The translations under genes and the position numbers were made by a program. DNA of 24,813 bases, taken from the NCBI GenBank assembly GCA_038078395.1, contig JBBUBH010000030.1:1-24813 (forward strand). The letters run 5' to 3'. The notes beneath the pieces were generated by a model that saw only the letters and a list, made by a program, of their open reading frames with translations, ran no database searches and was not told the DNA's origin. The DNA is from Patescibacteria group bacterium (GTDB lineage Bacteria > Patescibacteriota > Minisyncoccia > UBA6257 > 02-FULL-45-10c). Shown piece by piece: positions 18,358-24,702 of this stretch. Position 1 is the first letter of the stretch. Each line of letters opens with the position of its first letter.

Positions 18358-18497
18358 TATTCCCTATCTTTTTTACTGGCACCAGCGTCCGCTTGCTCCT
18401 GCGACAAGCGTCGCTTACGCCTCCCCAGCCGGACTCGCTTTCAGCGAGACCAAGCTCCGGCTGGGTCCGTAGTTGCCATACAAAAAGATAGTGAATA
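18358..18497. repeat. Structured repeat element, copy A (core 18378-18477)
   Basis: Core ggcacc-[hairpin]-tacgcctccccagccggactcgctttcagcgagaccaagctccggctgggtccgtagttgcc inside the outer stem ctatcttttt/aaaaagatag; starts at the secF stop. Confidence 0.9.
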
Positions 18498-18518
18498 AGT
18501 GAAGTTTAGAATGCGGGA

Positions 18519-18547
18519 TTGACTCCATTTTGTTTATATGGTATTTT
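18519..18547 (+). promoter_or_regulatory. Sigma70 promoter for the 18656 gene cluster
   Basis: TTGACT-17-TATTTT with TGn extension. Confidence 0.5.
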
Positions 18548-18655
18548 AGAAATAACTTAATAGTCGATATATATCATATTAAAGAAGCGCGGAGTCAGTT
18601 CAATAAGTAAGTGCAACACTTCTAGTAAAATAGGAGTGTATGAAATATAAACATA

Positions 18656-19723
18656 ATGAATTTTAATAACATGGGCAATAAAAACGTTAATATTTCAAAA
18701 ATAGTCGGTAATTTGCTTGCCCCCCTTGATGCCAGACAGAAAGAGGTGATAGAGGGCCGTTACGGCTTAAAAGATAGCGCCGTGAGCACTCTTGCTGAAA
18801 TCGGGGACAAGTATGGGGTTACAAGAGAACGCATCCGCCAGATTGAGGCAGGGGCTCTTTTGACCGTAAAAAATATTTTTAATAAGAGCGAGGCGGGGGA
18901 TTTTGTGAATTTAGTAAAAGAGCATCTTAATAATGTTGGGGGGCTGAGGAGAGAGTTGCTTCTTTTGGCTGATTTACGGCTTATGGTTGCTGATGCAAGC
19001 GTTCCATATTTGGATAATAAAGTCCGTTTTATTTTAGATATTGCAGGTGAACCGAAATTAGTTCTTGAAGATGATGGTATTTATTCATATTGGTTTTTAA
19101 ATGAAGATAGCCGCAAGAAAGCGGTTAATTTGATTACAAAGCTTGCAAAGTCGATGGAGGGCAGTCGGGATAATATTGTCAGCCATCAGAACGTGGATTC
19201 ACTTTTTAATGAAAATGTTAATCCGCATAATCTGAAGGATTTGGTTGCAATCAATTACATTTCTATTTCTAAGAAATTTCATGTCAATGAATACGGGGAT
19301 TTCGGGCTTTCACATTGGCCGGAAGTGAATCCGCGCACTGTCCGCGATTGGTCTTATATTGTTCTGAAAAAGAACCAGAAGCCGCTGCATTTTTCCGAGA
19401 TAGCGGAATCAATCAATAAGCAGAGAAAAAATTTCAAACGGCTTGCGCATCCGCAGACAGTTCATAATGAGCTTATTAAAGACGACCGTTTTGTTCTTGT
19501 CGGACGCGGAACATACGGGCTTCGCGAATTCGGAATAATGCCCGGAACCGCGAGAGAAGTTATCGGCAGATTACTGAAAGATCACGGACCCTTGAAACCG
19601 AAAGATCTTTTGGAATTGGTGCTTAAAGAAAGGATGTTTAAAAAGAATACTATCTTCATCAATTTGCAGAATAGAAAGCATTTCAAACGGATGGAAGACG
19701 GCCGTTATACGACTTTGGTATAA
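18656..19723 (+). CDS. Sigma70 region-4 HTH plus HARE-HTH (RNAP delta-like) DNA-binding protein
   Basis: N-terminal RQKEVIEGRYGL...TLAEIG..YGVTRERIRQIE; C-terminal L.K..KPLHFSEIAE.I...HPQTVHNELI.D.RFVLVGRGTYGL. No sigma region 2 recognised. Confidence 0.8.
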   Translation: MNFNNMGNKNVNISKIVGNLLAPLDARQKEVIEGRYGLKDSAVSTLAEIGDKYGVTRERIRQIEAGALLTVKNIFNKSEAGDFVNLVKEHLNNVGGLRRELLLLADLRLMVADASVPYLDNKVRFILDIAGEPKLVLEDDGIYSYWFLNEDSRKKAVNLITKLAKSMEGSRDNIVSHQNVDSLFNENVNPHNLKDLVAINYISISKKFHVNEYGDFGLSHWPEVNPRTVRDWSYIVLKKNQKPLHFSEIAESINKQRKNFKRLAHPQTVHNELIKDDRFVLVGRGTYGLREFGIMPGTAREVIGRLLKDHGPLKPKDLLELVLKERMFKKNTIFINLQNRKHFKRMEDGRYTTLV

Positions 19724-19791
19724 ATATAAACAGTTTTTTGTTCTTTATAAAAATAAAATAGGGAGAATTTGGTATACTAATAAGTAGGCAT

Positions 19792-21078
19792 ATGATTTTT
19801 GAAGATATTGCTTTTGGAATTAGCAAGACAATTTTGCAGGTGATAGCGGTAAGCTGGTGGGTGATTTTGCCTGTCGGCTTATTTTTTATTTGGAACGAAT
19901 TCTGGCTTTGGGGCAAAAACCGCATATTCAGGAAAAATATGAAGTGGATGATTGTTGAGATAAAAATTCCGAGAAATATTGAAAAAACTCCGAAGGCCAT
20001 GGAAAGCGTTTTTTCGGCGCTTCATGCCATACGTTTTAAGACCCCCGATTTTGAAGACAGATATTTCCGCGGAGAAGAGCCAATGTGGTTTTCTTGCGAA
20101 CTTGTCGGTTATGCCGGAGGAGTCCATTTTTTCATCCGTTTTCCGGCATTGGCCAGAAATCTTGTTGAATCGGCCGTTTATTCCGAATATCCGGATGCGG
20201 AAATAGTTGAATCGGAAGATTACACGAAATTGATGCCCGAAATTCTTCCTAATGAAGTTTACGATCTCTGGGGCCAAGATTTTGTGCTGGCGAAAGAAAG
20301 CGCTTATCCGATCAGGACTTATGAATTTTTTGAAGAAAGTATCTCCGAGCGGAGATTAGATCCGATATCGGCGATTACAGAAGCGATGTCGCGACTTAAA
20401 GAGGGGGAAGCGGCGTGGATCCAATATCTGCTTAGGCCGGCTTCTGATAGCTGGAAAAAAGATGGCGAAGCGATAAGGGATAAAATAATGCAGAGAAAAA
20501 AAGAAGAGAAAAAAACTCTTTCTCAGGAACTTGTTGAGGGATTTGTCCAATTTTTGAAAAATCTTTCATTTGCCGCGGCAGAGCATCCGGTCTGGAAGAC
20601 TGAAGAAAAAAAAGAAGAAAAATTCAAGATGCTCCATTTGTCGCCGGGAGAAAACCTTATTCTAAAAGGCATTGAAAATAAGATTTCCAAAGCGGGTTTT
20701 GAATGCGCTATTCGGTTTTTGTATATAGACAAGCGGGATAGTTTTACTTCAGCGAATGTTTCTGCTATTGGCGGCGCCTTGAGGCAATTCAACACGCAGG
20801 ATATGAATAGTTTTAAATCTATCAGCGAAACAATGACCAAAGTTACGGGCAGGATATTCACGACAAAGGGCTGGTTCAGAGAAAATAAATTATTTTATAA
20901 AAAACGGGTTATTTATGATTTATATAGATTGCGCCTATTTCCGCCGGAATGTTCCATTATGAATACCGAAGAATTGGCGACTATTTTCCATTTCCCGATT
21001 ATTTCGGTGGAAGCTCCGTTATTAAGGCGCCTTGATACCCGCAAAGGCGAACCGCCGGCTAATCTGCCTTTTAAATAA
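19792..21078 (+). CDS. Conserved hypothetical protein with an N-terminal TM helix, partner of the downstream ATPase
   Basis: 428-aa ORF with one TM segment then (LEI)KIPR..EKTPKAME and SFELV-like motifs; 5-bp gap to the ATPase gene. Confidence 0.8.
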   Translation: MIFEDIAFGISKTILQVIAVSWWVILPVGLFFIWNEFWLWGKNRIFRKNMKWMIVEIKIPRNIEKTPKAMESVFSALHAIRFKTPDFEDRYFRGEEPMWFSCELVGYAGGVHFFIRFPALARNLVESAVYSEYPDAEIVESEDYTKLMPEILPNEVYDLWGQDFVLAKESAYPIRTYEFFEESISERRLDPISAITEAMSRLKEGEAAWIQYLLRPASDSWKKDGEAIRDKIMQRKKEEKKTLSQELVEGFVQFLKNLSFAAAEHPVWKTEEKKEEKFKMLHLSPGENLILKGIENKISKAGFECAIRFLYIDKRDSFTSANVSAIGGALRQFNTQDMNSFKSISETMTKVTGRIFTTKGWFRENKLFYKKRVIYDLYRLRLFPPECSIMNTEELATIFHFPIISVEAPLLRRLDTRKGEPPANLPFK

Positions 21079-21083
21079 AATTT

Positions 21084-23605: not shown

Positions 23606-23611
23606 AGGGTT

Positions 23612-23640
23612 AGTTTATGGCTTTTAGCTTACAGAGTCAA
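23612..23640 (-). promoter_or_regulatory. Leaderless-type efp promoter
   Basis: Minus strand TTGACT-17-TAAACT-6nt-ATG. Confidence 0.7.
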
Positions 23641-23690
23641 TGTATCTGTTACTTTTATATCCTAAAATTTAGTTGTAATATGTAAACATG

Positions 23691-23827
23691 CCCCGTAGTG
23701 AAAATTCAGTGGTTGCTAACGCAAAAAAGTTTCACTATTGGACATAATTAAATAAGTAATTAATATATAAATAATTAATTTAAGCTCACGCAACGCAATT
23801 TTGCGTAGCTGAATTTCTACTACGGGG
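23691..23827 (+). mobile_element. MITE-like element, copy 3 (137 bp), at the start codon of the NTP-transferase gene
   Basis: 19-bp imperfect TIRs ccccgtagtgaaaattcag/ctgaatttctactacgggg, flanked by CATG/TATG (3 of 4 match). Confidence 0.7.
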
Positions 23828-23828
23828 T

Positions 23829-24560
23829 ATGAATAAAGTTAAAAAAGCCATTATATTGGCCGGCGGAGGAGGAACCCGCCTTTATCCGGTAACTTTGGAA
23901 ACTCCAAAACCGCTTTTAACGGTAAATAAAAAGCCGATCATCAATTATCTGATAGATATGTTTAAGAAGCATGGCGTGGAGGAAGTGGCGATTGTGGTCA
24001 GGAAAAGCCATTTTGATGATTTTTCTTGGTGGCTCAGAAGGTGGCAGAACGATCTCGGCGGAGTTTGGGTTAATTTGATGGTGGAAGGGGAGCCGATGGG
24101 AACATTGGGATATTGGGCGCATAATTTGCACACCTGGACGGGAAATGATCCATTTTTTCTGACAAACGGCGATGAGCTGAAAGATGTTGATTTATCCGCT
24201 ATGACGGAATATCATCGCAAAACTGGCGCATTGGCGACGATTGCCGCGGTGGAAGTTGCTAATCCGAAAGAATATGGCGTGATTGTTTTTGATGGCGATT
24301 ATATTGATAAATTTTTGGAAAAGCCGGAAAATCCTCCGTCTAATTTCATTTCTTCAGGGCTTTATCTTCTTGACCCCAAAATAAAAGATTTTATTAAAGA
24401 AGAAATTAGCCAGAATAAGAAATTTTTAATGATAGAAAAGGACCTTTTTCCGAAACTGGCGGGAACTAATAATTTATCAGCTTATAAATCAACAGGCAGG
24501 TGGTTTGATTGTGGAAATTTGGAACGTTGGGAAAAGGCAATTAAAGAGTGGGGTAGTTAG
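23829..24560 (+). CDS. Sugar-phosphate nucleotidyltransferase (NTP_transferase; GDP-mannose pyrophosphorylase-like)
   Basis: AIILAGGGGTRL.P.T...PKPLL, EPMGTLG, NGD, YGV, FLEKP, GLY, W.D.G. Confidence 0.92.
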   Translation: MNKVKKAIILAGGGGTRLYPVTLETPKPLLTVNKKPIINYLIDMFKKHGVEEVAIVVRKSHFDDFSWWLRRWQNDLGGVWVNLMVEGEPMGTLGYWAHNLHTWTGNDPFFLTNGDELKDVDLSAMTEYHRKTGALATIAAVEVANPKEYGVIVFDGDYIDKFLEKPENPPSNFISSGLYLLDPKIKDFIKEEISQNKKFLMIEKDLFPKLAGTNNLSAYKSTGRWFDCGNLERWEKAIKEWGS

Positions 24561-24702
24561 CTTTATTTATTTACTTGCCGGCACCGGCGTAACTGATTTC
24601 CAGCGAATCAGTTCGCCTACGCCTCCCCAGCCGGACTCGCTTCCAGCGAGGCCAAGCTCCGACTGGGTCCGTAGTTGCCACATAGTAAATAAATAAAACT
24701 AA
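24557..24702. repeat. Structured repeat element, copy C (core 24580-24679)
   Basis: Same 100-bp core; outer stem tttatttatttac/gtaaataaataaa begins at the stop codon. Confidence 0.9.

Follow-up and report, generated by a model that had tools for sequence, protein, structure and literature searches.

What kind of sequence recurs behind several stop codons of a single Patescibacteria contig, with stems that change from copy to copy and a fold that does not, and what maintains it there? Ultra-small Patescibacteria are generally regarded as nearly free of mobile DNA and as having very few non-coding stretches. The window analysed here, a stretch of 24,813 nucleotides, holds four such elements (copies A to D), which an earlier note had taken for an undescribed structured RNA or single-stranded DNA (ssDNA) element selected for its fold.

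Copy A spans positions 18358-18497 of the forward strand (covariance model score of 141.5 bits). Its outer stem (18358-18373/18482-18497) begins right behind the secF stop codon (18355-18357), and its core (18378-18477) measures 100 nt. The stem closing the junction pairs GGCA (18378-18381) with TGCC (18474-18477) through pairs that are invariant or covary between GC and AU. A side hairpin (18384-18415) follows, in which the stem covaries, a pyrimidine-pyrimidine mismatch is conserved and the loop reads TCCTGCG (18397-18403). The long arm (18416-18471), supported by covariation, consists of a TACG/CGTA stem (18416-19/18468-71), an internal loop CCTC (18420-23), a 10-bp stem (18424-33/18456-65), a distal hairpin CTCGCT-TTC-AGCGAG (18434-48) and a bulge ACCAAGC (18449-55). 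Copies B (22710-22847, core 22729-22828; 142.3 bits) and C (24555-24704, core 24580-24679; 136 bits) lie on the same strand, the outer stem of B taking in the stop codon of a coupling-protein-like ATPase gene (22716-22718) and that of C overlapping the stop codon of an NTP-transferase gene (24558-24560). The 100-nt cores of these three copies, running from GGCACC to GTTGCC, lie exactly where the earlier note had placed them, and all three contain the parts it had named: the GGCA/TGCC stem, the side hairpin with its TCC(T/A)GCG loop, the TACG/CGTA stem, the 10-bp stem, the CTCGCT/AGCGAG hairpin and the (A/G)CCAAGC bulge. The fourth copy is also real. Copy D is a diverged member of another subfamily on the minus strand (approximately 22880-23018; 63.9 bits), with its nearest relative elsewhere in the genome (C31:11949, 89%); the efp stop codon lies about 15 nt before it, and copies D and B are convergent. 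RNA folding of the four copies, compared with shuffled sequences, gave z scores of -7.5, -6.8, -6.1 and -5.3; when A and B were folded as DNA, their two strands were about equally stable.

The intrinsic terminator scan listed none of copies A-D, its only strong site being a canonical bidirectional terminator (24728-24754, no strand assigned) beyond copy C and outside the repeat, which shows that the repeat is not a substitute for terminators there. The earlier statement that none of the copies ends in a U-tract is valid only locally: no copy scores as an intrinsic terminator, but behind D comes TCGC plus T6, and a terminator lies about 40 nt past C.

The sole gathering-threshold match in an Rfam 15 scan of the window was a tRNA (15039-15109), and nothing matched over the four copies even at E <= 10. 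The strong Rfam hit that the earlier note had named as refuting thus did not occur; we found no description of the repeat in the literature. A covariance model search recovered a large family, with 37 strong copies in the 0.63-Mb Candidatus Harrisonbacteria genome and about 40 overall, amounting to about 1% of that genome. By the same model, carriers comprise 18 of the 22 genomes of the same family and 25 of 41 relatives; the repeat is also found in 33 of the 150 genomes sampled from the class and in six genomes from other Patescibacteria classes, and copy number among related genomes ranges from 0 to about 40. The four window elements are therefore members of a large non-coding, interspersed palindromic repeat family of Patescibacteria. 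Units are about 150-170 bp long, with branched hairpins of 124-170 nt, and some subfamilies reach about 250 bp. Each unit forms a single long hairpin: its outer stem, of 15-30 bp and often bordered by direct CTCGC(T) motifs, encloses a three-way junction from which a side hairpin and the long bulged arm project. Across genera, some 35 nucleotides of the junction, loops and bulge are kept, whereas the stem sequences all vary freely yet remain complementary; conservation throughout the class and in other classes holds for the internal loop, the bulge ACCAAGC, the bases of the junction and the pyrimidine-pyrimidine mismatch. In some copies the side loop is swapped for a plain triloop hairpin, and in some the hairpin tip carries nested perfect loop-less palindromes. 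The outer stems, described earlier as unrelated in sequence, are so only locally: genome-wide they form subfamilies common to several copies and genera, and they travel with the element.

Selection for the fold is supported by the covariation, whose signal grew as copies were added; the second refuting outcome named in the earlier note, a lack of significant covariation among more copies, therefore did not occur either, and its inference of an undescribed structured element is supported. Pairing was retained in 94.7% of cells, where shuffled sequences reached 65.0% and slid controls 36-47%, with double changes in 40 of 47 pairs and both-sided changes in 12 of the 13 pairs of the side hairpin. 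The top 31 column pairs by mutual information were all predicted pairs; the same approach revealed no pseudoknot or long-range tertiary covariation, and a single local off-helix signal (columns 57-147). The chemistry of the pairing is less typical of a transcript. In a generic structured RNA, the transcribed strand is expected to tolerate G.U much more than it does other mismatches; here, G.T makes up about 1% of cells on the drawn strand, and in five genomes A.C (equivalent to G.T on the complement) outnumbers it by 205 cells to 46, raw counts that represent fewer independent events because copies within a genome are related. Persistent mismatches, i.e. types recurring in at least three copies of one genome, are nearly all A.C. 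This pattern speaks for the complementary strand and for pairing as in DNA more than for RNA of the sense strand.

Comparison among genomes shows that the family has moved. Only about 3 of 39 sites are common to G007, a genome of another genus (99% complete, 31 copies), although synteny is conserved. The efp-downstream sites of 80 relatives lack the repeat, some holding plain terminators there, and at one site each of three genera has a different subfamily. In G021, two orthologous sites are occupied that are empty in its congeners, a pattern that fits gain or precise loss alike. Nested composite copies and truncated copies occur. For most copies the nearest relative lies within the same genome, with an identity of 90-94% or less; this comparison yielded no identical or near-identical copies and hence no sign of recent activity, a point against the mobile reading. 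Around efp, six assemblies from the same groundwater population showed identical spacing. Target-site duplications did not rise above control (longest flank repeats of 6.06 nt versus 5.67 nt in mismatched controls), and the direct repeats that inspection had suggested beside A, B and C were within chance. Since the flanking CTCGC(T) is the same in many copies, it may represent subterminal repeats or a specific target. Insertion into the loops of pre-existing hairpins was discarded as the source of the outer stems, given that, at a site filled in G021, the outer stem is missing from the empty counterparts and that stem subfamilies are shared.

Placement with respect to genes gives a more divided picture. 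In co-directional gene pairs, sense and antisense copies number 14:6 in this genome and 19:4 in G007 (33:10 pooled, p = 0.0006), but 12:13 in three other genomes, where the rule that a copy points the same way as the gene before it, true of all four window copies, no longer holds. In many sense copies the outer stem begins about -10 to +10 nt from the stop codon; antisense copies score as well as sense ones in the covariance model. Two copies may sit between convergent genes, each in sense orientation to the gene it follows, as with B and D in the window and C9:4977/5131. Some copies lie 10-35 nt ahead of the next start codon and must therefore be transcribed through. Single copies in other genomes sit behind fusA, rpoC, ftsH and groES, and single-copy genomes share no genomic neighbour (fusA, ftsH, ftsW, rpoC, groES, DUF763 and others). 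A replication-strand bias was rejected, the 21/28 of G007 equalling its gene bias and a composition proxy giving 20 leading to 18 lagging copies in three other genomes. Many copies lie at contig ends. The framing of the earlier note consequently has to be altered: the family is an interspersed mobile repeat rather than a gene-linked element, and its stop-codon and orientation rules are local tendencies.

The search for a mobilising enzyme followed the earlier suggestion that an HUH/Y1 or reverse transcriptase (RT) gene might accompany the copies. A single Y1 gene (RAYT-like, on C33) is indeed present; it is flanked by a different, REP-like 21-nt hairpin of its own and not by the repeat, and Y1_Tnp had no match in the high-copy relatives searched (G007, G001, G004, G009 and G021), so that a RAYT was rejected as mobiliser. 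RT genes are also present, but adjoin bAvd and therefore belong to a diversity-generating retroelement (DGR), for which reason they too were rejected; RT presence follows copy number only weakly, since RT genes are missing from G006, G009 and G021 in spite of their many copies, and RT-bearing G014 and G022 have 1 and 0 copies, respectively. Among the Pfam families tested, IS110 and DDE_Tnp_1 had zero matches in five high-copy genomes and rve matched in G012 only; G007 lacked matches to Y1_Tnp, TnpB, IS110, rve and DDE_Tnp_1, and carries one tyrosine recombinase only. RAYT, TnpB, IS110, DDE and RT are thus excluded or unsupported as candidates.

Several known systems share part of this profile. 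REP/BIME elements of Proteobacteria, associated with RAYT (TnpA-REP), are likewise high-copy, co-transcribed intergenic palindromes that lie mainly 3' of genes and seldom separate divergent ones, and REP moves without target duplication via folded ssDNA, as the present repeat may do. GTAG is found in the conserved core of the repeat as well, but inside it rather than heading a simple palindrome; unlike the 20-40-nt GTAG-headed hairpin of REP/BIME, the unit is about 150 nt long, branched and not associated with a Y1 transposase. With ERIC, Correia (CREE) and RUP-type MITEs it shares a length of 100-170 bp, a long terminal inverted repeat forming one big hairpin, intergenic dispersal, location within transcripts and nested and truncated copies. 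In those families, however, the sequence and especially the ends are conserved, whereas here the ends and all stems vary, with massive compensatory change, and only unpaired core nucleotides are kept. In contrast to DDE-derived MITEs, no parent IS with matching ends was found among the Pfam families tested; flank repeats, for their part, were no longer than in controls.

Also comparable are the integron attC site (bottom strand) and the attP(+) hairpin of CTX-phi, in which structure is kept and sequence is not, with conserved extrahelical or mismatched bases, a 60-150-nt hairpin and one active strand; attC, moreover, directly follows the stop codon of the upstream gene. Unlike attC, the repeat shows on direct reading of the alignments no R'' RYYYAAC or R' GTTRRRY boxes (its ends are GGCACC and GTTGCC) and forms no cassette arrays, being dispersed genome-wide beside housekeeping genes (secF, efp, fusA etc.) in conserved synteny; no integron integrase was recognised, G007 having its single tyrosine recombinase. 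The PATEs of IS200/IS605 resemble what is proposed here in being non-autonomous and hairpin-reliant, with a strand-specific single-strand intermediate and no target duplication, but their two hairpins are separate and subterminal, and they depend on TnpA (Y1). The repeat is one branched hairpin, TnpA and TnpB were not found in high-copy genomes, and three genomes showed no replication-strand bias. Rho-independent terminators occupy the same slot between stop codon and next promoter, and indeed the same orthologous sites in relatives, whereas the repeat has no U-tract right after the stem, is far larger and branched, and occurs within operons (e.g. groES-groEL). RNAs linked to retrons, group II introns or DGRs differ from it in having an adjacent RT.

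We consider it somewhat better than even (about 55%) that this mobile structured repeat is non-autonomous and spreads by way of a folded single strand, with copies kept mainly 3' of genes. The folded strand would most likely be ssDNA, and a trans-acting enzyme would read its shape together with the conserved unpaired bases; the active strand is probably the complement of the one drawn in the earlier note. Copies may persist mainly just 3' of genes because this is a permissive slot in compact genomes, where they would be co-transcribed and could take on a secondary role as a 3' hairpin. The even orientation in three genomes, the leading/lagging counts and the equal scores of antisense copies show independence from host transcription and replication and count in favour of this mobile reading. 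On the other side, the enzyme families searched yielded no mobiliser, even in the nearly complete, 31-copy G007, and the flank comparison revealed no target duplication. A further step, rather unlikely and put forward tentatively, would make the repeat a new kind of folded-single-strand element recognised by shape and about 35 conserved unpaired bases; as it spreads in genomes without a recognisable transposase, its mover would then be a housekeeping enzyme, such as the single Xer-like tyrosine recombinase, or an unrecognised Patescibacteria protein family.

The sense bias and the outer stems near stop codons could instead reflect a role at the RNA level. The repeat would then be a host-serving, cis-acting 3' UTR or intercistronic hairpin, like REP and ERIC, with the fold selected on RNA and acting as a shield of the upstream message against 3' exonucleases, an RNase III cutting site or an attenuator of read-through. 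The paired copies of convergent genes, the copies behind fusA, rpoC, ftsH and groES or shortly before a start codon, and the canonical terminators of relatives at orthologous sites all agree with such a role. It nevertheless appears doubtful, although a serious contender: sites are not conserved, orientation is even in three genomes with antisense copies preserved as well as sense ones, terminator-type U-tracts are missing from all copies, G.U does not exceed other mismatches in frequency and those tolerated are wobbles of the antisense strand, and a plain hairpin would be enough for the role, leaving some 35 conserved unpaired nucleotides unaccounted for. Those nucleotides, set in a three-way junction like that of small ribozymes among freely covarying stems, would also fit a catalytic or protein-binding RNA carried on the repeat, possibly a self-cleaving ribozyme for transcript processing or a stable small RNA freed from the long outer stem. 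Known small ribozymes are often multi-copy and repeat-borne, and the off-helix signal at columns 57-147 hints at a structured internal loop; such an RNA would be new, as no Rfam family matches. With G.U very scarce, a strand asymmetry opposite to that of usual transcripts, random gene orientation in three genomes, no tertiary covariation, the triloop replacing the conserved side loop and loop-less palindromes at the tip, we regard it as very improbable, and less likely than a new kind of mobile element. Hardly more probable is that there is no selection on function at all and that the complementarity results from arm-to-arm correction of DNA (template switching in quasi-palindromes) in decaying relics. 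Nearly pure Watson-Crick pairing with few wobbles, perfect nested palindromes, truncated relics and the absence of near-identical copies would follow, but correction would wipe out asymmetric features such as the bulge, internal loop, junction bases and mismatch conserved across classes, and strand-asymmetric tolerated mismatches need strand-specific selection.

In practical terms, the repeat breaks assemblies, as its frequency at contig ends indicates, and yields spurious ORF calls, and motif-discovery pipelines would misread it as regulatory RNA; for these reasons, annotation would benefit from a covariance model of the repeat. A single structured repeat that makes up such a share of a genome and is common to a whole class runs contrary to the expectation for these organisms. 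The mover of the repeat could reveal a new route of transposition or recombination in genomes without recognisable transposases, and a role in transcripts could show how mRNAs are punctuated and stabilised in Patescibacteria.

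The repeat is INTERSPERSED and mobile. In the window, copies A (18378-18477), B (22729-22828) and C (24580-24679) lie on the plus strand and have the cores ascribed to them in the earlier note, each exactly 100 nt long and running from GGCACC to GTTGCC, while a diverged fourth copy, D, occupies the minus strand shortly after efp (about 22880-23018). All four share one fold: inside an outer stem, a GGCA/TGCC pairing closes a three-way junction from which a side hairpin and a long bulged arm branch off. Their folding energies are 5-7.5 standard deviations under those of shuffled sequences; when copies A and B were folded as DNA, both strands were about equally stable. 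The note could not match the elements to a riboswitch, ribozyme, SRP, tmRNA or terminator, and this was borne out: a comparison of the four copies with Rfam 15 returned no match at the gathering score and none at E <= 10, and none of them resembles an intrinsic terminator, a canonical one being found about 40 nt past copy C.

A covariance-model search, which the same note had called for, revealed a large family in the window's own genome and its relatives. The first model (R1), built from copies A-C, picked out 37 copies with strong scores and 2 with weak ones in G000, the genome of the window (626 kb in 102 contigs, 83% complete), or about one repeat per 16 kb, and many of the copies lie at contig ends. 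Judged by the relatives of its EF-P, the organism is a Candidatus Harrisonbacteria (Parcubacteria/Paceibacterota), and its population is also present in Hainich groundwater assemblies. R1 matches occurred in 18 of 22 genomes of the same family, at 0 to 31 copies per genome, and, outside that family but within the order, in 6 of 18 genomes. A second model (R2), made from 76 copies, matched at least 33 of 150 genomes in a sample of the class, a lower bound because no more than 23 candidates were scored per genome, as well as six genomes from other classes of the phylum. In draft genomes a missing repeat or gene is not proof of absence, and the gene calls are ORF heuristics of our own.

The fold of the repeat is under constraint. 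Standard pairs fill 94.7% of cells in the 76-copy alignment, compared with 65.0% after column shuffling and 36-47% when partners were slid by 1-3 columns; changes on both sides affect 40 of the 47 pairs, the covariation score is 0.747 versus 0.192, and all of the top 31 column pairs by mutual information are predicted base pairs. Unpaired positions also carry conserved nucleotides, namely GGCACC, the loop TCC(W)GCG, CTACGCCTC, the bulge ACCAAGC and TCCGTAGTTGCC, and these motifs are still recognisable in distant single-copy genomes.

The outer stems, 15-30 bp long, had been thought to be of unrelated sequence, but they sort into subfamilies common to different copies and genera. At a site in the related genome G021 they are missing from the empty alleles and therefore travel with the element. 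Direct CTCGC(T) motifs border the outer stem in most copies of G007, which represents a different genus of Harrisonbacteria (main contig C1, 608,392 bp), and in one G000 subfamily; they are ten times enriched at the elements, with no enrichment elsewhere. Some subfamilies have an extra 30-70 nt on the 3' side. One subfamily has a 3' tail, TATA(A/G)ATGGAGGCGATGG..., that is kept between genera (G000 C83:5361-5413, C86:3366-3418 and C94 near 8848; G009 C4 near 6380-6446), and its resemblance to a -10 box, a Shine-Dalgarno sequence and an ATG suggests a possible tiny ORF or a possible expression signal directed outwards. Nested at the long-arm tip of some copies are loop-less perfect palindromes of 28-34 bp centred on CGATCG (G007 C1:310067-310217, 359078-359213 and 360065-360217; stretches L152, L154 and L155). 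Between small genes at 7274-9979 of the window, another short repeat (AAACTCTCCTTTCGGGGGAAATTT type, 24-33 nt), distinct from this one, occurs four to five times and looks like a terminator-like hairpin family.

Orthologs of G000 and G007 have a median identity of 64%, and only about 3 of the 39 G000 repeat sites are common to both genomes. The syntenic block from secF to an NTP-transferase gene contains four copies in G000 and none in G007, where 4 nt separate the ATPase and efp genes. Among 80 efp loci of relatives a single one has a weak match 3' of efp, the closest relatives having a plain bidirectional terminator or nothing after this gene. Two orthologous sites in genus g10 are occupied in G021 and empty in its congeners: at the first, unrelated canonical terminators take its place in two congeners and nothing does in two others, and at the second two congeners are empty. 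The first site is also filled in G000 (C53:1577) and holds a rearranged remnant in G007; the three occupants are of three different subfamilies, a sign of a hot spot or of repeated insertion. Some copies are truncated, others consist of a solo 3' end, and others again form nested composites, including a G007 composite, one subfamily within the shell of another, that has itself been copied four times. The nearest relative of most copies is in the same genome, with identity never above 90-94%.

Other structured segments were observed in orthologous spacers. After secF, G007 has a different GC-rich segment of about 130 nt (C1:566211-566350, in L165) instead of copy A, and unrelated palindromes lie, for example, at G007 C1:266107-266212 and after efp in stretch L055; several hairpin-element families seem to accumulate at the 3' ends of genes in these bacteria. 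Copies A and B flank a module of three genes in the window (18656-22718), coding for a sigma-region-4-like protein, a DUF8128 membrane protein and a TraG/VirD4-like ATPase, which is without copies in G007.

The link to stop codons reported earlier was borne out in G000, where the outer stem of sense copies starts within roughly 10 nt on either side of the stop codon's end. The accompanying rule of sense orientation survived in part: between co-directional genes, sense copies outnumber antisense copies in G000 (14:6) and G007 (19:4), but orientation is mixed in G012, G001 and G006 taken together (12:13), so that there is no general rule. Cumulative GC skew along G007 C1 is V-shaped with a minimum near 285 kb, the probable replication origin, and the strand on which copies A-C were drawn, sense to the upstream gene, is the leading strand in 21 of 28 G007 copies, no more than the bias of the genes themselves, 70% of which are on the leading strand. 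Using the GC and AT skew of single genes as a proxy, about 83% accurate per gene in G007, 20 copies in G012, G001 and G006 were leading versus 18 lagging.

The pairing of the repeat behaves like DNA. G.T wobbles account for only about 1% of cells, a frequency no higher than that of other mismatches, and the most frequent non-standard pair on the drawn strand is A.C, equivalent to G.T on its complement. Leaving out the conserved T.G beside the side loop, A.C and G.T fill 119 and 29 cells in the 76 copies (alignment A7, mainly G000 and G007), and 86 and 17 cells in 42 new copies from G012, G001 and G006 (A9); independent events are fewer than these raw counts because copies are related, yet the excess of A.C points one way in each of the five genomes. 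When only mismatch types present in at least three copies of a genome were considered, there were about 19 column-by-genome instances of A.C versus one of G.T. In the window, the strand with the tolerated wobbles is therefore the one antisense to the upstream gene.

These observations bear on the less likely readings in which the repeat is a host-serving RNA, a new ribozyme or small RNA, or a structure kept without function. The first would be in keeping with the position of copies behind stop codons and with their transcription, which is certain for the many that lie within operons or 10-35 nt ahead of the next start codon; the second would suit the three-way junction with its conserved unpaired nucleotides. 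Set against both are the A.C excess and, for a host-serving RNA in particular, the preservation of antisense copies, which equals that of sense copies; this, together with mixed orientation and the loop-less nested palindromes, places the constraint on the element itself, not on host mRNAs. Structure kept without function would agree with the scarcity of wobbles, the nested palindromes and the truncated copies; the conserved unpaired nucleotides and the strand asymmetry of the mismatches stand on the other side.

Regarding what moves the repeat, the proposed search for a co-occurring HUH/Y1 gene did find one in G000, coding for a transposase-like protein of 225 aa with the HUH motif PNHYHLLL (L128:1342-2019, within L128:1283-2086 = G000 C33:5459-6262), but it is bordered by its own 21-nt REP-like hairpins. 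These, TAAGGTC-N7-GACCTTA, occur once upstream of the gene, once in its 5' part and twice downstream, with two further copies elsewhere in G000 (about five to six genome-wide). Gene and hairpins together resemble a small RAYT/REP system that has no relation to the large repeat, and as searches of G007, G001, G004, G009 and G021 yielded no Y1 gene, this system was rejected as the mobiliser. The suggested reverse transcriptases fared no better: the two RT genes of G000 adjoin bAvd and are therefore part of a diversity-generating retroelement (L186:1525-4584, G000 C83; a 336-aa RT beside a bAvd-like gene, and a second, shorter RT), and RT presence tracks copy number loosely. The same stretch has a 300-bp exact direct repeat (469-768 and 2161-2460), which suggests a duplicated module. 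The transposase search covered a handful of families (Y1, TnpB, IS110, rve and DDE_Tnp_1); G007 gave no match to the last four, and its single tyrosine recombinase lies at C1:315360-315878. Repeat flanks showed no target-site duplication above controls.

We propose that the repeat is a non-autonomous element that would be copied via a folded single strand, most likely ssDNA complementary to the drawn strand, which an enzyme would recognise through its shape and conserved unpaired bases, the same principle of folded-strand recognition as in REP/RAYT, IS200/IS605, integron attC and CTX-phi attP(+). It would survive mainly just 3' of genes because this is the permissive slot in compact genomes, a slot that ordinary terminators or other palindromes occupy in relatives, and it may plausibly have a secondary role there as a hairpin for 3' stabilisation or processing. 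Our results show a non-coding repeat, constrained in its fold, with gains and losses at many sites in a whole class of bacteria.
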